Shown here: in pieces, positions 13,516-64,000 of the stretch
Layout of the letters: the number at the start of each line of letters is the position of its first letter
How positions within the stretch are numbered: the first letter of the stretch is position 1
From: Psammoneis japonica
Lineage: Eukaryota
Length of the DNA stretch: 64,000 nucleotides
Reading direction: 5' to 3'
NCBI GenBank assembly: GCA_008632985.1
Contig: QPGO01000045.1
Location: 434,001-498,000, forward strand
Notes under the pieces: model-generated
What the model saw: the letters and a program-made list of their open reading frames with translations, nothing else
Database searches by the model: none
Told to the model about the DNA's origin: nothing
Program-made: the position numbers and the translations under genes

Positions 13516-13907
13516 GACGCGTTCCAGCCCTAGGTGGGACTCGGTGTGACATTGGGCCCGTAGAATTCTACGTGCGAGCTCCGTAGTACGAGAATTTAAT
13601 TAATGGATATATTTATCTTCAACATCAAATAAACGGCCAAGTTTGTGGTGCAATTATGCCTCTCACCACTCGACATTTTTGCAAATTCGCCTGCCCTACG
13701 CGATTCTTAGGACATTATAGAATCGCGCTGTAACAAAAAATGTCAAAAGTTGTTGGACGGATCGCTCAATAAAAGTGTACCGTAAAATGACACAAAATGT
13801 CGAAAAAATCACGTAGAAATCTACGTGCGCGACATACGACGAGATACAAAAAACTGTCGATGTCACAGTTCAGCAGTGCGAGGTCCCACCTAGACCTGGA
13901 ACGCGTC
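13516..13907 (+). mobile_element. 392-bp MITE, young TA-rich copy, TSD TGGC
   Basis: TIR gacgcgttccagccctaggtgggac / gtcccacctagacctggaacgcgtc, with tggc at 13512-15 and 13908-11. Confidence 0.95.
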
Positions 13908-14400
13908 TGGCATGCCATTCTAGAAGCAGAAGAATCATTGCTTCGCTGCCTTCCTCCGCAGCACAGTCAAAGACCGTTGCACCATCCCCATCAGTCCAAC
14001 TGAAGTTGGCACCATGCTGCAAGAGAAGTCGTGCCCCCTCCACATTGTCATCCACAACGGCACACATCAAAGGAGTGAGGCCCGACTCCATTGCCGTGTC
14101 AACCGCCTCAGGATTGAACTTCAGAAGCTCATGCAAAATGTTCGCCCGGCCTTCTTTTGGAGCTGCCATGTGGAGAATCGTCACTGGAGGACCATCCGCT
14201 AATCTCATTTTGACCCCAATCTCAGCTCTGTGTTCCAGCAACAGTCAAGTCACTTTTTCGTTCCCACCAAACATGGAATGAAGCAATGGCGTTCCCCCAT
14301 CAGCTTCAAAGGCATCCACACATTGGGCGGTGCACAGCGACAAAGATGCAGCCAATCCTCAGCGGCGCACATTCCACTGCATTGAATTCAAAAGCTGCTT
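13908..14400 (-). pseudogene. Ankyrin-repeat protein pseudogene, interrupted by a MITE
   Basis: Ankyrin motifs TILHMAA, GLTPLMCAV...ARLLLQHGAN, GATVFDCAA, with Cys/His where Tyr is typical. Confidence 0.75.
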
Positions 14401-16984: not shown

Positions 16985-17376
16985 GACGCGTTCCAGCCCC
17001 AGATGGGACTCCGTGTGACATTGGGCCCGCAGAATTCTACGTGCGAGCTCCGTAGCACGAGAATTTAATCAATGGATGTTTTCATCTTCAACATCAAATA
17101 AACGGCCAAGTTTGTGGTGCAATTGTGCCTCTTGCCACTCGACGTTTTTGCAAATGCACCTGCCCTGCGCGATTCTTTAAGACAGTGTAGAATCGCGCTG
17201 TGACAAAAAATGTCAAAAGTTTTTTGGACGGATCGCTCAATGAGTGCACCGTAAAATGACACAAAATGTCAAAAAAATCACGTAGAATTCTACGTGCGCG
17301 ACATACGACGAGATTCAAAAAACTGTCGATGTCACAGTTCAGCAGTGCGAGGTCCCACCTGGACCTGGAACGCGTC
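16985..17376 (+). mobile_element. 392-bp MITE, partly TA-eroded, TSD CCGC
   Basis: Colinear with 13516-13907, with ccgc at 16981-84 and 17377-80. Confidence 0.95.
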
Positions 17377-17892
17377 CCGCACCCTGCGAACGCTGCACCT
17401 CCACGCTGTAAAAATTGTTCAAATGTGTGACATCTGGCTGGTGTGTCGACAATGATGCTGAAACTGTGGACCACTGTCATTTGCCCCCGATTTCCCTGCT
17501 CATTTGGAAAAAAAAGATTGATCCGGGTTCCTCACCCAGAAACCCACAATCCTTTTTGACTTGGACTTCATCAACGAACGTGCTTCGATCAATGCCACAT
17601 TGCCTGTCATGTGTGTGGGCACAATTGACCGCACTGCATGATCGCAGCAACAGAAAGCGCGGTAAAGGGTGGCGCCATAGTTGCAAAATGCCGATGGTCG
17701 ACGCATTGTCACGAGTCACGAGTTGTTTTGCTTGCGAGCAGCGCGAGTGGCGCGTCGGAGGGAGTTTCTGTAGAATCCTACGTATCCTGGTACAAAGCGC
17801 GATGAAGCTCCTTTCAAATTTTTAGTACCAGGTGGACACGTAGTTTTCTACGCTGGTACCATGTCGCGCGCGCTCGGTCATGCATACCCAAC

Positions 17893-17981
17893 AAGGAACC
17901 CGGATCCAACCTTTTTTTTTTATACTAGGTAAGGAACCCGGATCCAACCTTTTTTCAAAAAAGGTTGGATCCGGGTTCCTT
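17893..17981. repeat. Perfect 51-bp palindrome (17931-17981) plus a third copy of the arm (17893-17917)
   Basis: aaggaacccggatccaacctttttt-c-aaaaaaggttggatccgggttcctt. Confidence 0.9.
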
Positions 17982-18151
17982 TTCCTTTTCCAATGACGTC
18001 ATGACACAGGAGAAGGACGGACGGTATGGTCTGGGAATCTGGAACGAAAATCGATCATCAAAATCACGCTATTCAATTCATACAACCATCGCTTCTTTTG
18101 CAACCACTAAAACCATCAACCATCTCCTATTTCTCCCTCTATATAAGCAAC

Positions 18152-24720: not shown

Positions 24721-26549
24721 CTCTCACTCCAAAGCACCCCTCTGGGCTCAGCCACAAAACATTGATTTGTGCTCAACACCAGCATCGCCAAAGAGATGGC
24801 ACGAGCCTTGGCGCCTTTGGCACAAGCAAGAGACTCCTCAGTGTGGCTGCAACACTTCTTTTCCAGGTCAATGCAGCAGCTTCGTTGGATCTTCATGGTG
24901 AGAGAACAAGTGGGAGAAGAGTGTTCACAAGCATCATGAGAGAGGGCTGCTGTGGCTGCTGCTGCTTCTGTTGTCATTCCAAGGTGGTCTCTCCAGCAGC
25001 TCAGAAGTGGCTTGCTCAACAACAAGGCCGCTCAAGAGATGACAGCACCAGAGATTCTGTCCAACAATGAGGCACATGTTCGAAATGCACACAGCAGCAT
25101 TTGTTGAAGCACTTGCAGAAGAACAGATGGATGGCTGCAAAATGCATCCAAGCAAATGTGCCTCTCATTTTGCAGGTGCCAAGCTTCTGTTGTTCCAAGG
25201 CACTTTCCTTTTGGCTTGCAGGCAAGGCTCAGCGCATGTCTTTGGTCTGATGACAGGCAAACAGCTGGGAGAGGTGCGCAGAAATCTTGAGCCATCATGG
25301 AGGTGTTGTGGGTTGTGGGGCAGTTTGAGTGAGCATGGGAAATTGGAGGTGCAGAGAGACAAAAAGAGTGGAGAGAAGAACAGAAGCAAGACGGAGAGCA
25401 CAACATTCAAAATGGAGAGCAACTGGCTTTGCAGAGCCCCAGTTGTCTCAAGAAAAAAAATGAGTTCAGGGAAGTGTTGTGGCCAGAAGAAAGGTGGCTT
25501 TGATTGAAAGGGCTGCAGATGGCAACCTGTTTTGGACTTCTTGCTTGTTTTGTTTTTGCTTTGCAAACTCCAAGCAGATGAGTTGGGTCTGGAGATGAGT
25601 TTTCTGACCATCCCCTGACTCCATTTGCATGACGGTCAATCTCAAGGTCCTGTTGTGTGCCAGCTGTGATGTGAGAGGCGGTGGTGGGGTTGGCAAGCAA
25701 GGGGTGAGCAGCACAGTGTCCACTCCACCCATGATGCCAACTGCACTGCACACGCACACTTGCACTTGATGTTGTGACTCAGCTTTTTGGGGGCATGGAA
25801 AATGCTGAGCCAGAGCCAGCACCAGCTGGTCATGGTTCCTGCCTGCAGAGTTGAGAAGCTGGCAAGCCACAAGCTGTGGACTGGAGTGTGTCGTTTGCAG
25901 CATGTGGATGGGCCCCACCTTGTTTTGGCAAGAAGAAGAAACACATGATGATGGCTTCTTTTGGTGCCCTTGCTGAATGGCCACACTGCATTTTTCTGTT
26001 TTCAGGCTTTGTGAGGGGCAGCTGGAACAATTTTGTGTCAGGTGTGCATGTGTGTGTTTGTGGTTCTTTTTTTGCTGGCTGTGCTCCAGCTCTGTTCATC
26101 TTGTGCTGGCCTCACATGATGATGACGAACAACCAGTGACCTGCCTGATTGTGCTCTCATTGAGCCATTTTGCCAATTTTGAGTTTCAGCATGGGGGCGA
26201 TGCTCGTTGTCGAAGTTTTTTGTTTGTCAGGGGGAAACCACCCTTTTCTGCACTCTTCAACTGGATTTGGCAGATGGACAATCTTGTTGGATGCGCAACA
26301 GATGCGCACACTTGGATTGATGGAGAATGAATGCCAAGCAATGCTTTGCTTCCATTCAATCTGCTTGAAGACTGTGGGAACCCCCCTTGAACTCTCTGCA
26401 GTGACTGTGTCCATGGACTGGTTGACTGCTGGAAAGACGTGCATGGTTTCCAGTCAATTGCCGCTGTGCAAGCACACCCTCCCTTTGATTTTTGACATGC
26501 AAGAACAGTCACAAGTGATGCAATCTTCATCCTGGAGCACAATGGGTGG

Positions 26550-27501
26550 AGGAACTGTGCTCTGTCCTTGCAGATGGGGGCCCAAAGCTGAGGACCAATT
26601 TCTCCAGCTTCTGCCAACACTGTGGCTCCTGCTGTGGCATTTCCTTTTTCTCTTGCGATTCTTGCCGTGACAGTGCTCCTTTCGTCTTGCGTCCTCTTGA
26701 GATCATGGCGATGTCTGTGCCAACTGCATCCATCTTCATCTCCATCATCTGTTTTTTCCTCTGACGTTTTGAGGCTGCAGCTCCATGCTCTCACTGCTGT
26801 GACCAGCAGGCTGGCATCTGTCAAAGGAGCAGGAGCTGCTTTTTCAGATTGAGCAATCATCTTCATCACACGTGCATTGTCAACTGCAGTGATTGGCCGC
26901 CATTGTTGTGTTGCCTGTGTGAATGCAGTGAGCCATCTCTTTGACAGTCATTGTGGCATCAATTCCTGCCTGATGCCGGTCTGTTGTCCATGGTCACCAT
27001 GGTTTTTTGGCATCTGTCGCACCCATGACAATGGTTCCTTGCATCTCCTGGTTGAGGTCCACAAACTTCTCTGCCTCCATTGCAATGATCGCATCGACAC
27101 TGTGGCAGGCATCGCTGCTGATGACCTGCATGATCATTGAGTCACCTTTGATCACTGTTGCCTTGCTGTCAATTCTGCACTTGTTGCTGGTGCTTCTGTT
27201 GAGGTGGCTTTGGCGGTCCTCCTGTGTTCTCATTTGCTGCGTGTGCTTGTTCCTCACTTTTGCTGCACTCTGTGAAAATCCACCTTGATGCGCCAGTCAT
27301 CAACAAGCACATTGTTCATTTTAAAGTGTGCCTCTGCACACTTTTGCTTGCTGGCAAACTCGACAAACACACTGGAGAGATGTGCAGGTCAACTCAGCCT
27401 TGCCATCTGGATCAAAGCACAAAAAAACAAGTTCCAAGTCCTCATCATCCGTCACTGGATTCAAATTGCAGACAAACAAAATTTCTCTGGACCTTTGACA
27501 T
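26550..27501 (-). pseudogene. PPIL4: 3' part of PPIL4/CYP59 (RRM plus low-complexity basic tail)
   Basis: ILFVCNLNPVTDDEDLELVF and AEAHFKMNNVLVDDWRIKVDF match the PPIL4 RRM (EAYFKM). Preceded by the acceptor ttttgcag. Confidence 0.75.
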
Positions 27502-28577
27502 CTGCAAAACAAAACACAAACAAGAAGCAGAACCACACAAGTTGAGTGCTTGCACGTGCATGCTCACTGGCAGATGGCAAGTCCCTCAACATTTTCCAAG
27601 ACAAAAGTGCGTGATTTGTCTTCTCATTCATGAATCTCTTCTTCTCATTTTCTGGCCTTTTTGTGACTTTCATCTTCCTCCTCCTCTTGATCCACTTCAT
27701 TTGCTTTGAATGCGGTGCTCTGCAACTTCTTCTGGAGGATGAATGTGCTCAGAAGACACGTCACTCTGTCATCTTCCATTGCAGCAGCCACCATGATGTT
27801 CAACTGAGCAAGTCATCCATTCCAGCGGGAGGATCATCAAATGCATCATGAGTTACCAAGGCATGCACAATGTGTGCATTGGCAAACAGTCGACCATCAG
27901 CATCACAATGTGCAGCTTCAATTTTGTCTGGCGTGGTGTGCAAACATCATCCTCCACTGCCATTCCCAATGACAAGGATTGTTGTTGCTGCTCTGCAGCA
28001 CTGATGGATCAATGCTGCCACAGTCCATCCAGTGCTTGCAAAGGCCCCTGTTCCAACGCAATTGCAATGAGATCCAATGGCATCCTGCACCCCATTCATT
28101 TCATTCTTCACAACCGTCCTTGCTGCCCTCAATTCCTCCTTGCTCAAGAAGCACCCACCTGCATTCAAAAGTCCTTTTTGACTCTCTTTGACACTCGTGT
28201 TGTCATTTGTTGCAGTGTCAATGAGTTTGTGCACATTGACTGAGGCAAAATGAGCAAGCCTTGATCAATTTCAAAACATTTCAAGCAAGCTCTTGGCTGC
28301 CCACGACATCTGCAATTGAAGTTTCCGACAATGATGGCATGCTTTTGTTGCAACAAGTGCGTGGGGCCGTGCTGGTGGTTTTGATGTTGTTGATGTTCAG
28401 CGCGTTGTGGTGGGCAGAGTGCATGCTCTCAAGTGCTTGCACGGTCTGTGTGGGTGAGGGAGGCATGCCCAAAGGAAATTGGCAATTCAGCTTGCACGTC
28501 ATCTGTGGTGCTGTGCCGTGCAGCACCTGCAGCATGGCCCTCTCTCAGCTCAAGACTGCGACACTCTCTGGCACCAG

Positions 28578-42900: not shown

Positions 42901-43027
42901 CGACGACAGAAATTGGCTATTTTATAAGTGTCAAGACTCAATTCTTCGCGAACCATCAAAGCCGCGACGACATCGCTGGCGGAGCAGGTTTGGGCTTCGC
43001 ATAATCTTTAACAACATCAATTCAATC

Positions 43028-46000
43028 ATGTCCCCTAATAAATTGGACGAAGACAAAACAAGCGCACCTGTCTTCCTGGAAAGCCCTTAAGCAGCTCCAA
43101 GGTGCGATCTACCAGTATGAGTATGCAGACCCTTATGGTGAAGGTTGAGTTCCACGATGACAACGATGGCTCAGTTATCGCTGTGGAAGTTCCAACTGGA
43201 ACAAAAGTGACAGAAGTAGCCACGAAGGCTGGAGTGAGTATCCCCACCCTCTGTCATCACCCTCGTTTGTCTCCGGTAGGAAAGTGTGGCCTCTGCGTCG
43301 TGTCTGTTGAGAACGGACCGACTCCGACGCAATTGGCATGTTCGACTGTATGCCGAGCTAACGAGGATGGGAGCCCAATCAAAGTGCATGTTCACGGCAC
43401 GTTTCTGAATGGGCTCGCTAACGCGGCATTGCAGAGGAACTTGCAAGCCTCCCTCTCCCATCAAACGAAGAAGTTTCAAGACAATCATGACTTTGCGGCT
43501 TGCGGCTCTTTGGAGATTGAAGATCTTGCCAACTTTGTCACCAACGAAAATATTGATACGTCGTCGAGATGTATCATCTACGACCCATCCCCTTTGTGTT
43601 GGCTGTTCACGATGCGTTCGGGCTTGTGATCAGCTTCAAGGTATGAAGATTCTCGAGGCACCTTTACACAAAAGCAACCCTCCTCTCGTCGGTATCGCCA
43701 AAGCCCCTCCGTGTATGACGACACGTGCCGGTCGTCCCCTGTCAGAGACAGAGTGCATTTCTTGTGGACAGTGCACCGTATTCTGTCCGACGGGTGCAAT
43801 TAAAGAAGTGGACCATACACTGCGAGTGATGCGAGCCCTGCTGGACCCCGAGATGGTTGTTGTCCTGCAGACAGCTCCCAGTGTTCGCGTCACTATTTCC
43901 GAGATGTTTGGTGGCAAGCCCGGAGATTGTTCTGAAGGCAGACTTGTTGGGGCCGCTAAAGCAGCCGACTTTCGCTTCGTATTCGATACCAACCTAACCG
44001 CCGATATAACCATCATGGAAGAAGCGAACGAGCTTTTGCAGCGCATCGATATTGCCGAGAATGGCAACGATGAAGAAAAGAAGTCTAAGCCTCTTCCCAT
44101 GTTCACCTCGTGTTGTCCAGGTTGGATAAACCTGGTGGAGCAGTCTTATCCAGAGCTTATTCCTCACCTTTCCACCTGTCGTTCGCCCATGGGAATGTTA
44201 TCGAGCATCGTTCGTCACCACTGGTGGCCTAGACAGACCAACATTCTCAACCAACACGGCACTTCATCCGTGGAAGCCGAAGACGAAGCAGTCGACCAGT
44301 CGAAGCTCTTTGTGGTTGCCGCCATGCCCTGCACTGCAAAGAAAGACGAGAGGGCACGACCGCAACTCAAGATGTCCAACGGCAAACCAGAGACGGGCGC
44401 TGTCTTGACGATTCAAGAGTTCGCACGCTTGTTTGAGTTACGCCAGGTTGCCCAACTCAACAACTACAAGTCCTTTGCAAGCATCCCTGAGCTTGTGTAC
44501 GATAACCCTTTTTGAGAGTCGACTGGGGGCGGCTATCATCTTTTGAGTCACAGGGGGCGTAGCCGAAGCTGCTTTGCGCACCGCCGCGGACGTCTTGAGT
44601 GGCAAGAACCTGGAGAACGTCCAGGACGAATCTGTCAGAGGCATGTATGGTATCAAAGAGTCGACCATTCAGCTTGGTCCTAATGGCGAGGTTGCGTTGA
44701 ACGTAGCGGTCGCCCACCAAATGCGAAATGTTCGCGACTTTCTGGCCCAACTTGAAGAAGGAAACAAGAACTATCATTTCATAGAAGTTATGGCGTGCCC
44801 CGGAGGCTGTATCGGCGGCGGAGGGTTGCCTCAGAGCAGAGATGAAGATATTCTTCCCAAACGCATTGATGGCATCTATTCCTTGGACGAAAGAACGGTG
44901 GTACGAAAGTCACACGAGAATCAAGCCGTCAAGCGACTATACGAGGACTTTTTGAAGAAGCCTCTCTCCCCACTTTCCCACAAGTTGTTGCACACCCACT
45001 ACTTCCCACGACCAAGGAAGCCACCTATTGCGCTCAAGGCTCCAGCTCTTGTTGCGAAAGTTGAAACCGAGGGCAATAGTAATACTGTCTATGTGGTGTA
45101 TGGAACGCAGAGCGGAACGGCTGCTCAAGCAGCCAAGGAGATCAAGCTTGAGTTGCAGGGATTTATCGGACAAGCCAAGTTATCGCCTGAGCCACAAGTT
45201 TGCCTCGCGTAGCTGGCAACGCTATGCATCCTGACAAGCTCATGAAGAGTGTTTCTGATTCGCTCGGAACAATATTTGTCACCTGTACGTTTGGCGAAGG
45301 TGAGTTCCCGGAGACTATGGAGCAGCTCTGGGACTATTTGGAAGAATGTAAAGACGACAAGTACGAGGAGTTTCGCTTTGGCGTGTTTGGACTCGGCTCG
45401 TCAATGTACGCTGTTGGCGACCAGTTTAATCGAGCCGCGAAACGGCTGGACAAAGACTGGAAGAAGTGGGAGGAAGTAGAATGATCGAGGTGGGATTGGG
45501 CGATGACCAGCATTCTGAGTTATATAGGAGTGAGCTAGAGAAGTGGCTCGAGAAACTGTTTCCGAAGCTCTTCGGAAAAGAAGGTGGTGGGGCATCATTG
45601 CTTGATCCACCCGAACCGTTGTTCAAGCTTGCTCTTGCACCAGGAACGCATGATAGTCAGTTTCGTCCTTTCCCTCCAAGTTATCACTATGTTAAATTGG
45701 AATCCGCCGAAAGTCAAGTGGCTGTTGGGTATGATCGTCCAGCGTCTATCTTTACATTCGATCTTTTTTAACGGGTTGTGGAGAGAATTTTTTCCCTTTA
45801 TTCAGGCAGCATCAACGGATCAAGTCTGCTGACCGTCGAACCCGTCGATTGTCACAGTGATTGTCCTTTCCCTCCGGTGTTGACTGCTAAAGAGCTACTG
45901 ACTCAGTATCTCGACCTTTGTGGGAGGCCATCCCGTTCATTCTGTAAGCAGCTCTTCCTCTTTGCCACTTCGCCCGAAGCTCGCAACATTCTCAGAGCTC

Positions 46001-46921
46001 TTTTTGAGCGCACTGAGACAAAGTCGCAAGAGGAGCCAGCTCCGTACACCGCACGGCTACGATCACAAACCTGCGATCGTGAGAAAGTTAATCAGGAGGA
46101 GTTTGAGCGCTACACTGCGACTCTTCCGTATGCGGACGTCTTGTGTGATTTTGGTTACAAGGCGTTGCCTCCCTTCGAGTACCTGCTTTCGATGGTGCCG
46201 AAGATTTGTCCCCGATTGTACTCGATTGCCTCTTCTCCACTTTATCAAAAGAATAAACTTGATCTGTTGGTTGTCTTGAACGAGTGGACGGATCCAAACA
46301 TGAAGACGAGAGTTGGTTTGGCCACGCAGTTTTTGTTTGGTGCGGACATCGGAGATAAGGTCGCTATTCAGGTACGCACAGGCATTCTTCAGCCTCCGGC
46401 GGACACAACTACCCCCATCGTTTGCTTTGGTTTGGGATCGGGAATTGCACCCTTCTGCGGCTTCTTGCAGCATCGGCAACGACAGCACGAGCAATAGGCG
46501 CGTAGCTTGGACCTGCGACTCTATACGTTTGGTATCGTCACGAGACAATGGAATACTATACTTGAAAGACGATTTCGAAGAATGGATGAAATTATTAGTG
46601 TTGACCTGTGTGCATCCCGCCTTCTCTCATGATGATCGAGAGAAGCGAGGCGGAAAGCTCTATTTCATTTCAGATCTTATTGGCGATAAACCAAAGGACA
46701 TGGCCAAGGCATTGCTTCTGGAGGAGGAAAAAGAAGAGGAAGACAACCAAGTTCATGTGTATTATTGTGGACTAGCGCTTGGTATCCCTGAGACCATCCA
46801 GCATGCGATGGAGGATGCAGTCAAGCACGAGGAAGGTGGTGGAATGGACGAAGAAGAGGCAGAAGCCTTGATGGAGCGTTTGGTCTACTTAGAGGATAGA
46901 TTCCATGCAGAATGCTTTTAG
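43028..46921 (+). CDS. hydA: [FeFe]-hydrogenase fused to flavodoxin and FAD/NAD(P)-binding (CysJ/CPR-like) domains, with indels and stops
   Basis: 2Fe-2S motif (CHHP...CGLC...AC); two 4Fe-4S motifs (CVGCSRCVRAC, CISCGQCTVFCP); H-cluster motifs TSCCPGW, MPCTAKKDE, EVMACPGGCIGGGG; small-subunit RKSHEN...LLHTHY. Then YGTQSGTA in the same ORF, TCTFGEG, FGLGSS, RLYSIASS, GSGIAPF, VYYCG and ECF*. Confidence 0.92.
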
Positions 46922-47419
46922 TTTCGCCTGACCGCTTTGCATGATGGCTCGGATCGGAGTTGCGACGCCATTGCATGCTACACTTCTGCATATTATTTAG
47001 TAATAAGTTAGCAAATAGTTATCAGGATACTTCGCTTGGTCGGCTTGTTCTACTAGCTACTATACAAGGCGAATGCATTTACCGGCATTGTTGATCGGAG
47101 TTACACCACAAGCACCATGAGCGCTGCACACCTTTGCTGTGGTTGGAAAGGAAGGAAAGATTCATGTGGCATTTTGCCACCACATGCAAGCGAAGCGCAG
47201 GCCTTTGGAAGCTAACGCTGTCGAGGCGCCGCGCAAAGCCACACCTTGGCAGAGTTAGAACCGGATGCTTGAATCAGAAGGACAACATAACAGAAGTCAA
47301 AGTGAGATGGATCCGCATTATGAAGAGTGGCATTTTCTTAGGACGCATCGCATCAGTCAAACAAACTCGTCTGTTCAATCCAAATCCACGTTGCGCTGTT
47401 GCGTGAAAGGAAACTACCT

Positions 47420-48915
47420 CAGCTGTCATGCGCCTGGTGTCTAACACCTCGGAGCACTGAAATGCTGCCACCTCGATTGCTGTTCTTGCAATGAGTGCCT
47501 TGGCATGACAGGCGGTGAGTCCAACAACAATGCCACGCGCACTCTCCTCCCAAGTGAGCCAGCAAAGGCGGGGGGACAAACCGCACCCCGCCAGCGTCAT
47601 CAACGGCAGACGCCAAATCTGCAATGTCTTTGGCGCCCTCACCGAACTGCAAGTTGTCGCGGAGCCATTGGACAAGCAATCCTGCCATGGCAACAGCACC
47701 TTCAAGAGCGTAAACTGATGGCTCTCCCTTGACTTGGTGAAAAGGAGTCGCCATGAGTCCACATTTTGAAATTTGAGGTTTCTCCTGCGCACCCACATTC
47801 ATTGTGAGAAAGGCTCCAGTTCCAAATGCAGCCTTGGCTTCTCCCACTTGCAAGCAAGCTTGACCAAACATTGCAGTGTGTTGGTCACCAAAGAATTGCT
47901 CCAATGGTTGCAACTCTGGACACGACACCAATGGAGTGTCATCAAGTTGCAAAGCAGAGTCCTCGCCACATTTGTCACAACTGCCACGTGCTTTTCTCCA
48001 CCCGCAAGCTTGTGCAAGAGCCAAGAATCAATTGTCCCAAAGCATCCGTCACGTGCCTTGCCCTCCAAGCCGTGCACATTGTCAAACATCCACCGCAATT
48101 TGGTCGCCGAAAAGTGGGCACAATTTGGAAGCCCCGTTTTAGAAAGCAAGGCATCTTTTCCTCCTGGGCTCTTGCATTGGTCAGCAACAAGTCCCGTGGT
48201 TCGTCCACAATTCCAAACAAAAGCAGACACAGTGGCTCTCCTGAATCCTTGTCCCACACGATGGTCATTTCCCTCTGAATGGTGGCTCCAATTGACACGG
48301 CTGAATTGCTCGTGATGTTTGTTTTAGCGAGTGCATCCGAAATGCACCCCATGCAGAATTGTCCCAGGTCTCGGAGGCATCATGTTTGACCCATCCGGAC
48401 TGAGGACAATGCTGTTTGTGCTCGCTCTGAGAAGAGGAGACGGGCTTGCCAAACCTGTCATGCAGAACAAAGTAAGTCGATGAGGCATCCTGATGTGTTC
48501 CAGGTCCAGGTTGGACCTCGTGCCACTGAACTGTGACATCGACAGTTTTTTGAGTCACGTCACATGTCGCGCACGTAGATTTCCATGTGATTTTTGCGAC
48601 ATTTTGCATCGTTTCACGGTGCACTTGTTGAGCGATCCATCCAACAACTTTTGACATTTTTTTTTGCAGCGCAATTCTACAATGTCTTAAGAATCGCGTG
48701 GGGCAGGCGCGTTTGCAAAAACGTCGAGTGGCACAAGGCACAATTGCACCACAAACTTGGCAGTTTGTTTGATGTTAAAGACAAACACATCCATTGATTA
48801 AATTCTCACACTGCGGAGCTCGCACGTGGAATTCCACGGGCCCAATGTCACACAGAGTCCCACCTGGGGCTGGAACGCATCTCCTGATCAAGGGATCTGA
48901 CACATTGCTCTGTTG
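47420..48915 (-). pseudogene. glpK: Glycerol kinase pseudogene, interrupted by a MITE
   Basis: SLDQ|ASST, EHKQHCPQSGWV, QREMTIVWDK, HFSATKLRW, FGTIDSWLL, GDQH, FGTGAF, YALEG, VQWLRDNL. Confidence 0.9.
48492..48881 (-). mobile_element. ~390-bp MITE, eroded, TSD TCCT
   Basis: Colinear with the reverse complement of 13516-13907, with tcct on both sides. Confidence 0.92.
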
Positions 48916-49502
48916 AGCCAGCAGAAAAAGATGTCTGCCATTTCAAGCCAAATGCACCAACAACCCCAAATGCATGACATGAATCATGGGTGTCGACACA
49001 AAGAGCACCTGGAGGTGCAACATGATCAAAGAAAAATCCAAGAGGACTCCGAACACTTGCTCTCCACTTCTTTTGTTTTCCATGCCATGCATGCCGTGAG
49101 GACAGTGGGGATGGCAACAAGAATCAAGAGGGGAGTTGTCATTCCTGGCATTTTCTCGTGGGCCACTTTTTGTCGCGTTTCTTCCACCATGGTGTTGCTC
49201 TTAAATGTCTTGTTGTCTCTGTCCTTGCTTGTGCTTGGAGAGCCTCCGCTCTTCCAAATTGTTGGGCGCACATGTTGCTGCTTTGTCATCATGGCTTGCA
49301 GCGGGACTCAAAACACGCCAGCCGGCCAGATGCAATCACACCCAATGTCCATCTAATCTTGTCTAGACATTGTGATTTGCAACCCTTCAACAACCACCAG
49401 GGGTGTGACGTGTCATGCAATTTTATGATGACATGATGAACACAGTAAAAAATGTCACATTGTGTGCAATCTACGCAAAGCACACCACATGCATTTGCTT
49501 GT

Positions 49503-49538
49503 TGGGAGCAAATCTCCGCCGGTGGAGATTTGCTCCCA
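49503..49538. repeat. 36-bp near-perfect palindrome with an extra arm copy at ~49793-49807
   Basis: tgggagcaaatctccgccggtggagatttgctccca; gagcaaatctccacc recurs downstream. Confidence 0.8.
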
Positions 49539-50599
49539 GGGTGTGGTGTTGTGGCTCTGTTTGTGGTGGCAATTCATGACAACCTTCATTGTCAAAGGTT
49601 GAGATTTAGTTCCTCTCCATTCGTGGATGCAGCTTGCAAAAAACCTGGTGTTAAAAGTCGACATTGAACTTTCTAAATTGCAAAAGGGGTTCCTCCAGAT
49701 TTTCAGTGAGTGCGTGCTCCAGAACAAAATCGCGTGAATGAAATGTTGTGTGCATCTGAAATCACTTCATTTGCTGCATTTGTGACGCAAGCGAGCAAAT
49801 CTCCACCCATGGTTGAAGGGTCAACAACACATCATAGATCAACAAGAGCTGTGTTTTGGGCCACATTCACGCAATCAGCGCCATCAAAGTCAAGTTGTGT
49901 GGCACGCCCCGCACCCCCGAACATCGCAGCAGCAGTTGTCTTTTCCATGGAAATCTCTGAGCAGGGAACAGCTCGGCAAAGATTGGCGCAACACCATTTT
50001 TTCAAACTCACCTGCAGATGGCAAGCACCCCAACTTTTCCAAACAACAGCGTGCCATTTGTCTCTTTTGTGGTGCTCCATGACTTCTTCTGGAGGACGAG
50101 TGTGCTCAGGAGATGCCGCCATTGCACCATGGCATGACAACAACACACGATGTTCAAGCAAAGTCTTCCATTGGGGAGGATCATCAAATGCATCATGAAT
50201 CACCAAGGCACACACAATGCGCACATCCGCAAATGGTCCAATGTGCCACTCAAATCTTGTCTGGCACACCACGGCTCCAAATGGCTGTTGCTGTTGTTTG
50301 GGTTTTGACCCTCTTTGACACTTGTGCCATTTGTCGTAGCATCGAGCAGCCATGTGCAGCCGCTGCCACTGCTGCTGCCTTTGAGGTCTGCGCGTTGAGG
50401 CATCATTGAGGCAAAAAGATGTGTCCTTCCACCAGAAGACCTCAAAGTCAGTTCTGCATTGCTCACACAATTCTTGTGCTTCTTCTTTGGACAAGCCAAC
50501 CGCAGTGACAAAGACAGTCATGGCAATCAATGACTGTCACCTGGAGTTTTGGGTGCAAGGAGTGGCGGGTTCAAGCTTCGTGTTGTTCCAAACAAGTTC

Positions 50600-51360
50600 A
50601 ATGCCAAGGAACATTTCCAATCCTCAGATGTTGACAATGACACAAAATGTGGTGGCCCTCAAGCACAGCTGGGCCTGCAGCTGAACAAACTGGATTTCCA
50701 CCAAATCCATTGAAGTGCCACACCCATGGATTCAAAAGCATTGGATGTTTGTGTGTTGTGACAACAGCAGCCAGGGGCACGCCATTTTTGAAAAGCTTGC
50801 CCACAACTGCAAAGTCGCCAGGCACTGCAGGCCTGTTCCAGCTCCAGGTGATCCGTGCGGGTTTGACTCCCATCATTTGGCAATTTGTGCATTCAGCACA
50901 TCAAACTTTTTCAAAATCCATTTTTTGCCAAATCAAGGGGCAAGTGCACACTTCACATGTGTTTTCAGGCATGCACTTGCCTTTTGATTTTCAAAATGAT
51001 CAAAATTGAAGGAGTTCAATGTGCCAAACTGCACAGAAAATCGGCCTCTCGTGTGATGAAAAGCGGGTCACCTGGAGCTGGAACAGGCCTGCAGAAGACC
51101 CTGTGCTCTCATCAAAGAAATGCTGAAATGCTCAATCTGTTGCCCTGCGTCTGAAATGGAATGATTCAGAAGGACCACTTGCCGATGAGTGAGCTTCAAT
51201 CAGAACATTGTCTTTGTGTTGCACTCTGTTCGTGCGCCACTTGCAAATGTCGACATCACCGCAAAGAAGCAATCTTTCTGAGCCAATGTTGCTGACCTAA
51301 AGTGCACTTGAGAAGTTTACGAACTGGAGGTTGTGATTCCATGTGTTGCGTTGATCCTCC
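50600..51360 (-). pseudogene. Class-III aminotransferase (AGXT2/ETNPPL-like) pseudogene
   Basis: PGDFAVVGKLFKNGVPLAAVVTT and WHFNGFGGNPVCSAAG match GK..GNG.PL and YFNTFGGNP. Confidence 0.75.
50830..51089. mobile_element. 260-bp MITE of a related TIR family, TSD TGCA
   Basis: ggcctgttccagctccaggtga...tcacctggagctggaacaggcc flanked by tgca. Removing it restores the aminotransferase frame. Confidence 0.85.
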
Positions 51361-51422
51361 CAGCCTCATGCGTTGCATGGCGAGTCAGTTCCTTGGACCC
51401 CGAAATTCACGTCTCTGCAGCA

Positions 51423-51770
51423 GACGCGTTCCAGGTCCAGGTGGGACCTCGCACTGCTGAACTGTGACATCGACAGTTTTTTGAATTGCGTTGCATGTCG
51501 CGCACATAGATTTCTACATGATTTTTTGATGTTTTGTGTCATTTTGCAGCACACTTAATTGAGCGATCCATCCAACAACTTTTGACATTTTTTGTTGCAC
51601 AGCGCGATTCTGTGATGTCTCAAGAATCGTGCAGGGCAGACAAACTTGGCCGTTCATTTGATGTTGAAGACAAACACATCCATGGATTAAATTCTTGTGC
51701 TGCGGAGCTCGCACACAGAATTCTGTGGGCCCAATGTCACACGGAGTCCCACCTGGGGCTGGAGTGCATC
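51423..51770 (-). mobile_element. MITE, eroded and internally deleted, TSD AGCA
   Basis: Same family as 13516-13907, with agca at 51419-22 and 51771-74. Confidence 0.92.
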
Positions 51771-51774
51771 AGCA

Positions 51775-52726
51775 ATTCCTGTGGGCATTGACGCCAGGAA
51801 TCTTCATGGGAGTCTGCACTCTGCCTTGTGGAAGAATGCCATTGAATGTTGTGTTGAGTTTATTTTGAAGGCTGTTCCTGAGGGACTGTGCATGTGGTGG
51901 GATTCTTTGCCAACCTGGATGGGAATTTCCCTCTTCCATGCCATGTTGGCTTTGCCCATCTGTCTGTGGCAGGGCAAGTCTGCCTTTGCATCGGCGGGTT
52001 GTCATTTTGTCTGTTGGGCTTGGTCCATCTGACCATCTGCTCTCTTGCTGGCATCAAGTTGCACATTCTGTTGTGTGTCTTTGTCATTTTGCTGGAACCC
52101 ATTCCAGGGCAAACTGAAAGGATCAAGTTGCTGCAGTCCAGCTGGGGGAGTTCAGGACTCCGACACCTTTGTGGGTCTCTTTGTTTTGTTGACTGCCGGA
52201 AGGTGTCTGGTCTGTCTTTGGGCCCCAAACTTCTCTGTGCTTTGACTGGCTGCATCATGATTGGCTTGTGCCGCATGGTGCTTGGGTGTTGTGATGCAAC
52301 AGTTGATCTTGTCGGCAAGAGCCATGAACTTGTCATCTGTGTTGGTGACAACAGGGGGGGAGCACTCTTTGTGCTGGATGCACCCCGTCAAATGGGCTTG
52401 CAGTGCAGCACTTTGAAGTGCTTTCACAAGACACTGTTGCGTCTGTTGTCGCCGTTTTGGTGAACCACGTGATTCCATGGAATGTTGTCACGGGCCACTG
52501 CAACTGCCCATTTCTTGCCACGGAATTGCCCAGCCACATCTTCTACATTGTCATTGTTTGCGGCCTCGTCGGCGCTGTTGTTGGAGTGAATTGCTTCGAC
52601 GCCATCAAGAAACTCAAAGTCATGGTGCATGATTGGTTCCCTGCCATGCATGACAACGAAGTTTTGCAAGAGGAAGACGAGGAGGAGAACAAACAGTTTG
52701 ATGTTGTTGGAGACACTGAGAATTAA
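51775..52726 (+). pseudogene. CLC-family chloride channel/transporter pseudogene fragment
   Basis: SGLSLGPK, GALFVLDAPRQMGLQ, VASVVAVLVN, GHCNCPFL and hydrophobic helices. Confidence 0.6.
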
Positions 52727-54239
52727 AACACTGTTTTCGAAGACTCCTTTTGCAAGATTAAAGAGCTGACAATGAATGCACGCCCTTTGATGCATTCAAG
52801 CTCATTCATTGCTCGAAAGGCCGGTGACAAGAGCTTGAGTCTCTTTTTTCTTTCACCCTGTCTGAAAAGGCAAAGGGGCAGATGAAGTCCTTGTTCCTCA
52901 TCTCTTGCATGCAAGGGAAGCTCAAGTCAAGAATTCAACCTTTGCTGCAGAGGCAGAAAGCAGGGCAATGCTGGCACAAACCTGGCCACGAATTGGTCTG
53001 TCTGCTGGGAGCAAGGGGTTTGACGACTGTTGGTGCCTGGTCCACAATCAGCAGCACTTAATCAGGGTCGAAACTGTCAGCACTTGCCATGACACTCTTG
53101 CACAAGAGGCTTCTCAAAAACTCCAATTGACAAGAAATCGCACACACCAAGACCCACGACACCAAACTGACCACATTCCATTCAAAGACATTTTTGCATT
53201 TGTCGATCTTTCCAGACTTCCTCCCTCCAGCACAGTTCAATCACAGCATCCCATGCACCTTTGAGTGCGTCCTTGTCCTCAGGATCAGGCAACGATCCCT
53301 CCAAAGCGGCCAACACAACACGGTCTCCAGGAGAACGATCTGGACCCATTGCCGTGGCCACAATTCTGAAACCCTCTCTCTGACAGACTTCAGATTTTCC
53401 CTCTGTGATTGTCAGTCCAAACCAATGTTGGAGTTTCCTCTTGTTCATCCTCATTGAAAAAAGCAGGATGTGGAAACTTGAGAAAGCCCTCGAGAATGAA
53501 AAAAGACTTGATTGACATCCCCACAGCATCCGACTCATTGTCCAATTGTTTTTGCATGAATCTCCATCGATTGAAAGTGCTGTCTAAACTCAGTGTTGGA
53601 CCACGTTAGATGCCATGTGGAGTCATCCAAACATTGGGGAAATGTGAAATGCTTTTCCAAAGCTTGTTGATGGGGAACCAATGACCCAAAACCCCGCCGA
53701 CTCATGATGATGAAAATGACCAAAAACCGCCGACCGCAGAGTCAAATGCTCACAAAGCACCACACGTCACACTCAACAAAGTGATGGCATTTTGTTGTTG
53801 GCGCTGTCTGCTTTCAAATCAATTGAGAAACACAAGGAATTGTGCAAAAGGACTGCTTGCTCACACACTGAATGCTGGATCAGCCATTGAATTTCTGTCT
53901 CTAAGATGATGGCCTCAGTCCTGTCTGGAGTGAGGGCTTGTCTCATGCAAGCACCCTGTGCATTGCCTGGACATCTCATTCTGGATGAGCACTTCATTTG
54001 TTGGATGGCTCATCAAGAGCATTGTGTGATTTCAAGGCATGCAAAAGAGCTTTGTGGGCTGTTGTCCGTGGTGTGAAAATGACGCACAGCATGCATGTTC
54101 AGAGTTGGGAGAAGGGGGCAGCAGCTTGCAAACATTTCTCTGTGGCTCATCAGCTGCCACAACAAAGGACAAGCAACTCACCACCCATGATGTGCCCAAG
54201 CCTTTGAAATTGCACCTGGGCATCATGTGAAAAGACACA

Positions 54240-57200
54240 AGTGACTTTTTCTGCAGTTTCACACTTTGCCTGCAGAGGGTTTTTTTCTGCCCACCCAAGT
54301 GCCACTCTGCCACCACAACTGCAGTCAAGCAAGCCACCCAAACTGTGCTCAGCCATTTGAGGTTGTTTCTTGGAACTTGAAGAGTGCACTGAAAAGCTGA
54401 GAGTGCAAACGTTTGGCAAAAATGACTTTTTCTGTGGTTTGACACTTTGCCTGCACGGGTTTCTGCCCACCCTGAGGCTGTTCTGCCACCACAACGGCAG
54501 TCAAAAAAGCCACCCAAACTGTGCTCAACCCTTTGAGGCTGTTTTTTGCAATGAAGAGTGTGGTCAAATGCTGAGAGTTCAAGCCATTGGGCAGAAGTGA
54601 CTTTTCATGCCACTGACACTTTTCCACCACACAGCAGCTGCTTTTCTGCCTGCTGCCTGCATGGGCAGTGTGATCACCTGCATTTTGTGGGAAAAAACCC
54701 GCTGAACAATTTTGTGGATGGATGTGTTTTAATGATCACATCTCTCCCTCAAACACCATCATCCAAACAAACCCTCAGTGTCTTGCTCCCCTTTCCACAC
54801 ATGAGGAATTTGGCTCTGCTGTTTGTTTTCTCCGACAACGCGATTTGAGAAAAACCATCAAACACGTGTGCATTCACGACAAATTTAATGACTGTTTTCC
54901 CTTCAAGCATGTTTCTTGGGACACAAGGAGTGTGCTCAGAAGCCAAGACTGCCAGCACATTGGCAAAAGTGCCTTTTGCTTTCTGTGGCTTGACACTTTG
55001 CCTCTCTGTGGGTTTCTGCCTGCCCAGAGGCTGCTCTGCCACAGGGCTGGCAGCAGTCAAGCAGGTCACCAAAGCTGTGCTCAATCATTTGACAATGTTT
55101 CTTGGGACATGAACAGTGTGCCAAGTGGCCACAAGAGGGCAGAAAATTTGGCAAAAGTGATTTTTTCTGCCCGCCGACACTTTGACACCAGACTTTTCTT
55201 TGGCTGCAGCTGACACTTTGCTCTGCCACCACAACTGCAGTTAATTGAGCCCCACAACTTGTGCTGAACCCCTTGAGGTTGTTTTTTGGGACATGGAAAG
55301 TGTGCTCAGAAACCAAGATTGCAAGCTCATTGGCAGTGGTGACTTTTCCTGAGGTTTGACACTTTGCCTGCAGGGGCTTCTGCCCACCCAGAGGCTGCTC
55401 TGCTGTCACATGGCTGCAACCAAGCAAGCCACCCAAATGGTGCTCAACCATTTGACAAAATGCTTTTGGACAGGACAAGTGTGCTCAAAAGATGAGAGTG
55501 CATGCAATTTGGCAGAAGTGACTTTTGACGCGTTCCAGGTCTAGGTGGGACCTCGTGCCACTGAACTGTGACATCGACAGTTTTTTGAATCGCGTCGTAT
55601 GTCGCGCACGTACATTTCTACGTGATTTTGGCGAAATTTTGTATGATTTTATAGTGCAATTATCAGGCTGTCCATTGAACAACTTTTCACATTTTTTTCT
55701 TCTACGCCATTCTCGAGTGTCTTAAGAATGGCGCAGGGCAGGCGCATCATCCAAAACTTCGAGTACGAACAGGGACAGATGTGCTACAAACGTGGCCGTT
55801 TTTTTTATGTCGAAGACAAATGTGTGCATCAACCAGAGTACGAACCACAGAGCTCGCACGTAGAATTCTACGGGGCAAATGTCACAAAAAGTCCCACCTG
55901 GGACTGGAACCCGTCTTTTTCTGCCGACTGACACATTCCCATCAAACACTGCTTTTCTGCCTTCAGCCCAGATTTCACACTGCCACACCACAGCTGCAGT
56001 TGAGCAAGCCACCCAAGCTGTGCCCAACCTTTCATGAATGTTTCTTGGGACACAAGAAGTGTGCTCAGAAGCCAGTGCTGCAAACACATTGGCAGAAGTG
56101 GCTTTGTCTGTGGATTGACACTTTGCCTCCAGTTGCATCTGCTCACCCACACCAGAGGCTGCTCTGCCACCACAGCTGCAGCCAAGCAAACCACCCAGAC
56201 TCTGCTCAACCCTTTGAGCTCATTTCTTTGGACATGGAAAGGGCACTCAGATGCTGAGAGCACAAACAATTTGGCGGAAGTGACTTTGTTTCTGCCAACT
56301 GACACTTTCCCCCCTGCTTCTGGGCTGCGCTTGCTGCCCAGAACTTGCTTTGCACTGCCACAACTGCAGCCAAGCAAGCCACCCACACTGTGCTTGTCCC
56401 TTTGAGGTTGTTTTTTAGAACATGAAGAGTGTGCTCAGAAGCTGAGAGCACAAACAATTTGGCAGCTTCCTTGCTGCTTTTCCACCAGGTTTCTCTGCCT
56501 GCTGCCTGGATTTGCTCTGACACCACAGCTGCACTCAAGCAAGCTGTCCAAGCTGTGCCAAGCCATTTGAGGGTGTTTGGTCAAGATGTGATTTTTCTGC
56601 CAACTCTGACACTTTTCCACCGTGCTTCTTTGCCTGCTGCTGCCACCCAGATTTGGCTCTGCCGCCACAGCTGCAATGTCAAACAAGCTGCCCAAGCTGA
56701 GGCAAGCCAATTGAAGATGTTTCTTGGGACATGAAAAGTGTGCTCAGAATCCAAAACTGCAGCTGCATTGGCTGAAATGATTTTTCTGCTGTTTGACACT
56801 TTGCCTCCAACAGCAGCTTTCGCCCAACTGGAGCCTGATCTTCTGCCACAGCTGCACTCAAGCATGCCATCCAAATGGCACTCAGCCAAACAATCAGGCA
56901 CAAGTGACTTTTTCTGTGGTTTGACACACTTTGCCTGTGCTTTGCAGCAGTTTCTGCTGCCCACCCAGGTGCCTGCTCTGCTGCCATGACAGCTGCAGTC
57001 AAACAAGCCACCCAAACTGTGCTCAGCCATTTGACAACATTTCTGGGGACATGAAGAGCGTGCTCTTTTTCCACCAGGCTTGTCCTCCACCTCTTGCTGC
57101 TGACCATGTTTTGCACTCTGCTGCTGCCACACAACTGCAGTCAACAAAGCTGCCAAAACTGTGCTTGCCCCTTTGAGGTTGTTTCTTGGGATGTGAAAAG

Positions 57201-57320
57201 CATGCTCAGAAGCTGAGGGAGCAAACAATTTGGCAGAATTGACATTTTGCGTGGTTTGATGCTTTGCCTGCAGAGAGATGGGTTTCTGCCAAACCAGAGG
57301 CTGCTCTGCCACCACTGCTG
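54240..57320. repeat. Degenerate tandem array of ~180-bp units, about 14 copies
   Basis: Recurring gtgactttttc...gacactttgcc...caactgcagtcaagcaagccacccaaactgtgctca...tttcttgggaca...gtgctcagaa. Confidence 0.85.
55527..55915 (-). mobile_element. 389-bp MITE, young TA-rich copy, TSD TTTT, inserted in the satellite
   Basis: gacgcgttccaggtctaggtgggac / gtcccacctgggactggaacccgtc. Confidence 0.93.
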
Positions 57321-57815
57321 CAGAGTTGGGCAAGCAACCCAAGCCCATTTCGATGGAACAAGAAGGGCTCATGTTGGCGCATGATGGCAGAGAGTGTGAG
57401 CTCATCATCCCATCTTGTCCTGTCATTTGACACTCCATTTCCTTGAGATTTTTTGAGGGATCTGCACTGCATTCCGCACAATTCGGCCCACTCTTGTTCC
57501 CGACAAACGACGACTCCTCTGCTCGCACTTGGTCTGCTCGTTGAATGACTGTGTGCCGCATTCTGTCTTGCGTGGTCCCGTCCGTCTGACAAAATTTGAA
57601 ACAACATGGGAACATGAAGACGCATTTGAAATGACCGTTATTCTGCATGGATAAACACAGGAAGTCGTGTCACAATCTGTAAGAAAACGTTTCTAACACT
57701 TAACCATGTCTATACATTGAAAATAAATTCAACGTTTTCAATATAGCATACATTTGCCGATGCGTACATTCAAAAATTGGCAGTTCAATTGAAAAAAACT
57801 ACGTTCTAAACATTT

Positions 57816-62619: not shown

Positions 62620-64000
62620 AAGAGGCCTTGGCTTCTGCTCCCTCTTTGACAAATCTTGAGGGAGCTTGTGCAGAGTTGTGCAAGAAGCTCATGGACACAC
62701 GTGGTGCTCCTCTGGAATTGTGCGACTGCATTGTTGATTTCATTGAGAGGCACACTGGCAACAGCAAAATTGAGCTTGGTGCAGTTCTGCCAAGGAGAAA
62801 AGAGTTGATGCGCACCTTAACCAAGCATTTCCCTCTTCCACCCAGCGAGTCCATTCCTGTCACTCTAGAAACCAAAAATTTCAAAGCCGGTTTGCCAAAA
62901 TGAGTGTCAGTGCCAAGATGGGATTTCACAAAGGTCTGGGAACAGTTTTTGCTCGATCCTCACCTGCGGTGCAGCAGAGAGAACATGGCCGATCCAGACA
63001 ATCCTTTTGGGAAGCACAAAGTGAAGGGACCGGATGACAAGTGCCTTTTGGCGGGTGAGTGGCACAGGCGCAGTTGCGCAGAATGGATGACTGACCCAAA
63101 GAAACAATTTTTTGAGTGCAATGTCATTTGCCTCAACAAGACTGGCAGGACACAAGGGATGGGATCACATTGTGGAGAACCAGTGATCATGACCTCTGCG
63201 CATGTTGCCTTCAACAAATGGTCAGACAAGAGTGTCTGGAAACCAATTGGTTGTCTCCCGGATTTGGAAAAGATGTCGTCATCTGCGGCAAAGAATCTCT
63301 CAAACAATTGCAAGGCGGAGAAGGGACGCTTGTTGAGAGACTGCCACACTTGCTTGCGTGTCATTTTGGAGCCACTTTTGGAAGTCATGAGAAAAGGAGG
63401 CATGAACACACACGTGTGACGAGGGGATGAGATGCGATGCCTCCACGCAATCCCGCTGATCATTCTGATCACAGGAGATGCAAAAAGCGGCGACTGTCTC
63501 GTCGGATGATGCGGAGGTCACAACTGTCGTCAACGTTGCTGTCGTTTTTGCCTCGCTGGCTCAACAAACTGGACAACCCATGGATTGAATGCGAGTTCAT
63601 CAGAGGACTGGATCTCCAACAAGTGCAAACTAAGGCCAACAATGACAACAGATCAGACCAAGAAAGGAAGTGCTGGTTGGGCATCTTGCATCACCTCAAG
63701 CAACACAACGCACCCACCAACTGTCTTTTTGAGGCAGACTTTGGTGCACAACCATGTGGGCGTCACCCTTGCGACAGCAAGCAACATGATGCATCTCTTT
63801 GAAAATGGCACCTTGAAAAGGGCAATCAATTCATTTGTAGACAGCATGACACCTGTGGTCGCAAGTGAGGTGGACAGAACAGTGGAAAGGATTTTCAGCA
63901 ATCACCGGTCAACTTGCAAAGCCTCCTTTTTGCGAACAAACTTCAAAGGAGGAGCAACGTCGCTTGCCTTCCTCAACTCTCACCACTGGGCTGGAATGGC
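62620..64000 (+). mobile_element. Plavaka-like transposase relic, running off the window
   Basis: GAPLELCD, DPDNPF, GEWH, ICLNKT, GEPVIMT, WKPIGCLPDL, RDCHTCLRVIL, ITGDAKSGD match the Plavaka pattern if Tyr is restored. Confidence 0.65.

Follow-up and report, generated by a model that had tools for sequence, protein, structure and literature searches.

Fungal RIP, a premeiotic and RID-dependent process of ascomycetes, changes C to T at CpA and leaves saturating transitions in repeats, duplicated host genes included, and polymerase eta mutates WA motifs during antibody hypermutation. Among algae, one published case of repeat mutation targeted to A:T pairs is known, that of Bigelowiella natans, where it has been read as antiviral. 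In that report, A>G/T>C changes are described only at TpA, within two integrated NCLDV/virophage regions and at a rate ~1000-fold above background, and an ADAT2-type deaminase is proposed rather than shown (10.64898/2026.01.13.699255). In a diatom, transposable elements (TEs) are methylated by DNMT5 (PMC9998398). For TpA-targeted mutation itself, we found no diatom report in the open-access literature.

We compared these systems with a 64,000-nucleotide stretch of the Psammoneis japonica genome (C47:434001-498000, hereafter the window), the genome searched being the 91-Mb, 597-contig assembly. In the window, the ratio of observed to expected is 0.29 for TA and 1.47 for TG/CA. When the window is divided into 128 bins of 500 bp, 72 bins hold at most 6 TA, 56 hold at least 11 and none holds 7-10, a two-state distribution far beyond chance. 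CpG is also low in the TA-depleted blocks; among the TA remaining in depleted bins, TTAA and CTAA are enriched and ATAT and GTAC are absent. This genome and that of B. natans are alike in that A>G/T>C falls almost only at TpA, yields TG and CA on both strands and is confined to discrete regions, with the genes outside spared; they further share TG/CA enrichment and the presence of TE domains among the depleted sequences. The host here is a diatom, that is, a stramenopile and not a rhizarian, and the extent differs: TpA in the B. natans viral region is given as only 1.8-fold below the genome, whereas erasure is near-complete in the depleted bins of the window (72/128).

One depleted block (47450..55500; 0-6 TA per 500 bp, CpG low too) holds a glycerol kinase (GK) pseudogene on the minus strand (47435..48966), in which the 3' part is missing, internal deletions and frameshifts occur and 5 TA are left in 1,145 bp. 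Two intact GK copies, either alleles or recent duplicates, lie at C58:6121-7611 and C214:54071-55561; both score above the TIGR01311 cut-off and contain no stops, and their closest named relatives belong to the diatoms Odontella and Eucampia. The window copy matches only in fragments, at no more than 114.7 bits against the cut-off of 590.35 that the C58 and C214 copies pass, and has no open frame with full FGGY_N and FGGY_C domains above the curated cut-off. Further mutated copies are found 150 kb from the window, one nearly whole (c47A) and one partial (c47B), and another on C7.

The initial annotation had listed ten motifs with Cys or His in place of a conserved Tyr and explained them by TAY codons turned into TGY or CAY, and all ten could be located. 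Those of the GK pseudogene are HKQHCPQ (48420), GEPLC (48241), HFSATK (48116) and WLLHKL (48023), all on the minus strand. Read against the intact C58 and C214 copies, which have HKQYYPQ, STYFSATK and WLLYKL, three of the four (HKQHCPQ, HFSATK and WLLHKL) are Tyr to Cys/His changes. The fourth had been misread: GEPLC carries Cys (TGT) in both intact copies and also in four of the nine closest homologs (P0004, P0006, P0007, P0009), and a derived Cys is ruled out in favour of an ancestral one. Tyr codons do change faster than others, with 8 of 9 changed in the window GK against 52 of 327 other codons; seven of the eight became Cys or His and one became Gln via CA. In c47A and c47B, all Tyr codons are changed (10/10 and 6/6), compared with 56/468 and 30/183 of the other codons.

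The codon alignment with intact copies and tally by sequence context that had been put forward as a check reveals TpA-specific A>G in GK. The intact copies have 41 TA in common, of which 30 are aligned in the window copy, where 14 read TG, 13 CA and 1 AA and 2 are kept; without three sites at ragged ends (n=27), the counts are 12 TG, 12 CA, 2 kept and 1 AA. Likewise, c47A shows 19 TG and 18 CA at the 41 TA. Per adenine, the window GK changed at 21/46 for T[A]>G, compared with 7/134 for A[A]>G, 8/131 for C[A]>G and 5/129 for G[A]>G, so that adenines other than those of TA changed at ~5%; C>T at CpG reached 17/100. The window GK and c47B have 25 derived changes outside TA and CpG in common. At their TA sites they agree in direction in 9 of 13 cases, with 7.3 expected under independence, and most TA loss therefore postdates the split of these two copies.

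The GK copy is part of a 2,025-bp segment (47139..49163, minus strand) that the other haplotype lacks. That allele is represented by contig C140, which is 95-96% identical over 42927-47138, differs over ~1,280 bp and matches again from 49164. In place of the segment, C140:179620-180900 carries ~1.28 kb of an intact native ORF, which reads 466 aa from an MMKQQH start. This ORF gave no Pfam match and may resemble RPAP2. The joint 47138-49164 is also present in contigs of run X1. Taken together, the C140 comparison and the joint show that the window GK is a broken, surplus copy that took the place of a native gene, and the disrupted gene survives on the other haplotype only. X1 contig depth is 52-65 in the depleted block against 78-93, and this half depth is a hint of hemizygosity, the real evidence being the allelic contig. 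The apparent source of the segment is a sister of c47B at a distance of 150 kb. The left edge of the segment (47139..47434), ~300 bp, is partly TA-depleted, and no other copy of it was found. At the other end of the segment, a fragment on the minus strand (48969..49162) derives from the gene next to GK on C58 (Pfam 7tm_3), with 11 TA in the source and none here.

Beyond the joint lies the 5' remnant of the native ORF (49164..49345, minus strand). The disrupted gene is single-locus, and in a 132-bp piece of the remnant all four TA have become TG, so the evidence from native DNA consists of four sites, next to one new TA and one ambiguous site in the following 50 bp. On the other side of the segment, window 43042-46921 (plus strand) encodes an [FeFe]-hydrogenase with the domains Fer2, Fer4, Fe_hyd_lg_C and Fe_hyd_SSU. 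A FAD_binding_1 reductase part comes after it on the same strand, and the whole resembles a diatom fusion of hydrogenase and reductase. The reading frame is broken near 43629 and 44515, perhaps by indels of the assembly; indels relative to the run contigs were seen.

Further host-gene fragments in the window, of PPIL4 and an aminotransferase, show the same change. A PPIL4-type (cyclophilin + RRM) pseudogene (26434..28226, minus strand) has EAHFKM at 27334, where the intact cyclophilin-RRM copy reads EAYFKM (TAC to CAC), and its 59 source TA now read 26 TG, 25 CA, 1 CG and 6 other, with 1 kept. A second PPIL4-type fragment (50068..50270, minus strand) is free of TA. PPIL4-type genes exist in at least seven TA-rich copies or fragments (L042, L045, L046, L048-L050, L052), with TA-rich copies on C1, C39, C89, C208, C314, C6 and C25; several adjoin a repeat that also neighbours GK copies, and this repeat may be the route by which host genes move. 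A fragment at 50560..50830 (minus strand), which we take to belong to an aminotransferase family, has HFN at 50717, and the intact paralog reads EYFNTFGG. For the fragment at 13910..14109 (minus strand; TPLMCA at 14076, FDCA at 13971), which we presume, as did the initial annotation, to be an ankyrin repeat, no intact source was found, the sole paralog recovered being itself TA-depleted, so that a Tyr ancestor of its motifs is putative.

The TA-depleted fragment of a Plavaka-family transposase (62904..63419, plus strand; IGCLP at 63246, RDCH at 63336) has 119 matches in the genome, with a PF18759 match on a related copy (L179), and none among the 11 closest of these is intact, all being depleted. 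At one and the same codon, these 11 copies variously have Cys, His or Tyr, which requires a TA ancestor and upholds the reading given for this element as well. The fragment had no match among longer proteins. A protein-identical copy of window 62907-63416 lies at C343:11777-12286 and is either an allele or a duplication made after mutation.

Across 21 alignments of TA-rich sources with TA-poor copies, 749 TA sites read 307 CA, 298 TG, 8 CG and 65 other with 71 kept, and as the alignments were picked for this contrast and some sources were used repeatedly, the lost fraction is inflated while the product type is not. The near-equal TG and CA counts (298 and 307) bear out the claim that both strands are hit, and the intact paralogs establish TA as ancestral. 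The change is not specific to Tyr: every TA is affected, in any frame and in non-coding DNA too. The further proposal that ordinary genes are affected like TEs stands for spare copies, fragments and remnants in repeat-rich blocks; it does not extend to working genes, which keep their TA. This holds for the GK and PPIL4 copies that still work and for native genes within the window. In allele pairs, 110, 79 and 48 shared TA are retained, and change is small and two-way. The C353 allele of 17539-18035 shows one-sided TA loss (8/13 vs 0/4); this stretch resembles a small repeat, and we therefore left the pair out as single-copy evidence.

Rate and timing were assessed in a MITE family whose terminal repeats start GACGCGTTCCAG and whose target duplication is 4 bp and variable. 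An old, TA-depleted copy of ~390 bp (48491..48881, minus strand; 5 TA) lies inside the GK pseudogene. A partly depleted copy with 10 TA occupies 16985..17376 (plus strand), and further copies are found at 51422-51763 and 55527-55915. Within a depleted block, a young copy (13516..13907, plus strand) has 25 TA and an intact target duplication, TGGC; being TA-rich amid depleted sequence, it must have inserted after the block was mutated. A MITE pattern without TA and CG gave 354 genome matches, and 70 loci from the first 100 listed yielded 62 copies, none of which has two TA-rich flanks. The copies keep between 30/30 and 2/30 of their TA, and loss is bimodal: below 20% in 21 copies, 20-60% in 8 and at least 60% in 33, which fits bursts or two insertion waves. 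One copy (L068) has lost 26/30 TA, 0/30 CpG and 1/270 other sites. In 53 low-background copies, which may share ancestry, T[A]>G occurred at 689/3164, A[A]>G at 38/3641 and [C]G>T at 144/3148. With young and old copies averaged, TA>TG stands at 21.8% against 0.4-1.0% for other A>G. TA loss is thus hypermutation that runs ahead of CpG decay and is separable from it. Compared with the CpG methylation decay of diatom TEs (DNMT5; PMC9998398), it affects the same blocks and gives the same TG/CA products, whereas CpG decay is slower and separable, copies and tandem units having lost most TA with CpG intact.

The base that follows TA strongly affects its loss. In a likelihood fit with A at +1 as the reference, the relative rates for the paralogs (531 events) are 3.1 for C, 1.1 for G and 3.9 for T, and for the MITEs (1,801 events) 3.7, 1.3 and 4.1. 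An A at -2 makes loss about twice as fast as the other bases there, and TACG, which wins 69:17, is the strongest context here. This T-A-pyrimidine preference is resolved in the present data; the main text on B. natans does not contain the words context, trinucleotide, pseudogene, paralog or diatom. Strand-coordinated runs were not detected in lightly mutated MITE copies (35/70 adjacent pairs alike, 33.7 expected) or in the metagenome sequences described below (46/94, 46.5 expected), and heavily mutated MITE copies gave one weak excess (411/742, 390.8 expected, p 0.03). At MITE consensus sites 84, 92, 123 and 186, the TA in palindromic CGTAGA/TCTACG is kept by 47-53 of 62 copies, a slow loss in a favourable context that possibly reflects protection by a bound protein.

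What attracts the process was examined in a nested tandem repeat at C47:335900-352000 (L012, L160), where 6.2-kb units, 98-99.5% identical, each contain an inner array of 581-bp units. These 581-bp units presumably correspond to a piece of a host SNF2-type gene. A comparison of two 6.2-kb copies gives 59 TA-type differences within the inner array and a further 10 in its tail, whereas eight bins outside the array, with 147 TA, show 0 TA-type against 11 other differences. Within the 581-bp arrays, the first unit is spared, the last is mutated in its first half only, and CpG is almost intact (33/33 kept in 5 of 7 mutated units). Since the 6.2-kb repeats are spared and the inner array is mutated, plain duplication is not sufficient and DNA need not be foreign to be hit; the affected tracts also have sharp edges. 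The very young 6.2-kb repeats may, however, not yet have been exposed. We infer that host-gene DNA is mutated through lying in a silenced domain or forming a short tandem array and not through foreignness or mere duplication. A silenced chromatin domain would be the simplest guide, the domains probably being silenced, CpG-methylated repeat chromatin. Two further kinds of repeat occur in the window: degenerate tandem repeats at window 54230-57600, 67-79% alike, in which nearly all TA and CpG are gone, and, as a second family besides the MITE, one of ~410 bp with internal inverted repeats (window 49403-49812), of which 40 copies were scored.

These observations set the diatom apart from both described systems. 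The viral or foreign target described for B. natans is not the rule here, where host-gene copies, a host-derived array and a native remnant are mutated and TEs are hit besides spare host genes. With RIP in ascomycete fungi, the subject of PMC2621366 and PMC11969663, the process shares dinucleotide-specific saturated transitions, sharp domains and leakage into neighbouring single-copy DNA; it differs in changing A>G at TpA and removing stop codons, where RIP changes C>T at CpA and creates them. In our data, [C]A>T amounts to 4.9% in paralogs and 0.3% in MITEs, and CA/TG are gained. RIP is triggered by homology and mutates all copies, whereas here the intact GK copies and the 6.2-kb repeats are spared and the single-locus remnant is mutated. 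The process is not fungal RIP, from which it differs in chemistry, in the homology trigger and in the strand runs.

Sequences outside this genome carry the same signature. A copia RNase H fragment that lacks Tyr was compared with its 120 best-ranking homologs; five of these have 0-1 Tyr and carry Cys or His at conserved Tyr columns. Scanning with one of these Tyr-poor copia proteins brought up 21 loci from metagenomes. Their DNA identity to the examined loci of this genome does not exceed 69%, and most of the 21 are not TA-depleted. Two of them (L181 and L195) share 95.7% identity across 5,751 bp; the TA of L181 read in L195 as 54 TG and 50 CA with 124 kept, the reverse direction giving 8 and 3, and C>T at CpG occurred at 4/662. 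In this retrotransposon pair together with a second pair, TAY was mutated at 83/224 and TAR at 26/272 (P 1.5e-13). The metagenome pair likely comes from another organism.

We are very confident that the dead, haplotype-specific GK copy acquired its mutations where it lies and once duplicated, through A to G change at TpA on either strand and within a limited domain. We hold just as firmly that T-A-pyrimidine is preferred 3-4-fold, that the process acts largely independently on each copy and that TA is lost faster than CpG. The whole might best be explained by a TadA/ADAT2-type deaminase, to which we give an even chance of being the agent. Such an enzyme would act on transiently single-stranded DNA in silenced domains and turn the A of TpA into hypoxanthine, which would be copied as G; a changed site would no longer be a target, so that each TA would end as TG or CA, and the process would work like a reversed RIP genome defence. 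The genome has candidates in its ADAT2-like and TadA-like genes. Its nine PF00383 matches include TadA-like, ADAT2-like, dCMP deaminase and RibD-like proteins, and neither a deaminase expansion nor a fusion to a chromatin reader was found among them. An ADAT2 homolog (L130) has HxE, PCxxC and an Asn at what we take to be the equivalent of TadA D108; these features are uninformative, because this is an ordinary tRNA enzyme and ADAT2 is universal. As a separate observation, a Zn-deaminase domain lies in frame with a 2OG-Fe(II) dioxygenase (DIOX_N + 2OG-FeII_Oxy) in L129 (C79:87006-90176).

In the base-editor literature, native TadA edits UAC, engineered TadA favours pyrimidine-adjacent adenines in DNA, and TadA8.20 on RNA edits UAG (17.5%) above UAC (11.6%) (PMC12027372), while a benchmark gives a GCA/CA motif for ABE8e editors (PMC11702641). 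Common to TadA/ADAT2, adenine base editors and the present data are A>G with a 5' T/U and, between the native site UAC and our strongest context TACG, the sequence around the target (PMC12027372, PMC11702641). The native enzymes, however, act on tRNA, and the published 3' preferences differ among editors. The motif match is thus a loose analogy, and the diatom proteins are candidates for DNA activity. The missing strand runs count against a processive deaminase, which might leave them. From sequence, a lesion on A and one on the paired T would be indistinguishable.

Several other processes could produce such changes. Error-prone repair in methylated repeats, where patches opened at lesions such as deaminated 5mC would be filled by a Y-family polymerase placing G opposite template T, is in our view unlikely. 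It would account for the loss of TA and CpG in the same blocks, for the lack of strand coordination and for AA>AG slightly exceeding GA>GG (1.0% vs 0.4% in MITEs, 1.4% vs 0.7% in the metagenome). TA>TG, however, exceeds AA>AG about 20-fold (21.8% vs 1.0% in MITEs, 23% vs 1.4% in the metagenome), a bias far sharper than the WA signature of polymerase eta, in which the AA rate lies near that of TA. Moreover, TA is lost where CpG is intact (33/33 in 5 of 7 tandem units; 4/662 changed in the metagenome), and transversions are nearly absent. We find it similarly improbable that a miscoding modified base at TpA is responsible, either deaminated N6-methyladenine or an oxidised thymine of the 5-formyluracil type that pairs with G. 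A palindromic dinucleotide target in sharp domains would suit a chromatin-guided writer of such a mark, whereas the asymmetric preference for a +1 pyrimidine probably better suits a reader of one strand than a symmetric mark, and double TA>CG changes are rare (8/749). In addition, 10.1101/2024.10.28.620566 places eukaryotic 6mA at ApT near active genes, where it is not mutagenic, and reports 5mC only, and no 6mA, in P. tricornutum.

A-to-I editing of RNA followed by reverse transcription and insertion of the edited copies has the 5' U preference of ADAR-type enzymes in its favour (10.64898/2026.01.13.699255), and some targets are retrotransposons. It is largely refuted by the equal directions within one gene (12:12), by the mutation of intergenic DNA, MITEs, a DNA transposase, tandem units and an in-place remnant, and by copies that keep diverging after insertion, and we regard it as very unlikely. 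Hardly credible is the absence of any mutation process, with base-calling errors at modified bases or selection against TA in its place. Native genes of the window do show indels relative to the run contigs, which would fit base-calling errors, but the contigs of run X1 carry the depleted letters, with 1 other letter in 600 over 47109-47708, 1 in 886 over 52609-53494, and 7/667 and 4/724 in two further pieces. As X1 is possibly the assembly's own sample, the stronger arguments against an artefact are the graded series of copies, the paralogs that differ in direction at single sites, as between sister copies, and the same change and motif in independent metagenome assemblies. Selection, for its part, cannot drive a single substitution type to fixation at ~90% of the sites of dead DNA.

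With working paralogs fixing the direction of change and host-derived DNA as a target, the question moves from what is foreign to what is a silenced domain. Returning to the deaminase, we tentatively suggest, while leaning towards doubt, that diatoms defend their genomes with a naturally occurring DNA adenine base editor, guided by chromatin and marked by a T-A-pyrimidine signature, in more than one diatom lineage and perhaps SAR-wide with Bigelowiella, that silenced or tandem-repeat domains trigger it and that it erases spare gene copies. If so, it would restrain evolution through duplicated genes, an effect known from fungal RIP. The T-A-pyrimidine motif, which recurs in three data sets, one of them most likely from a second organism, offers a fingerprint for testing candidate enzymes, and a natural DNA adenine deaminase, if real, would be of interest to base-editor work.

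For annotation, the consequences are more immediate. TA>TG/CA cannot turn a sense codon into a stop and removes Tyr as well as TAA/TAG codons, and dead copies therefore keep long open frames, putting gene annotation at risk; the ages of diatom repeats will be overestimated. The nearly whole GK copy c47A (L021:1396-3252, C47:327121-328608) has an open frame of 619 codons with zero Tyr and its stop read as TGG, and despite its mutations passes FGGY_N and FGGY_C. A gene caller would accept it as a gene.
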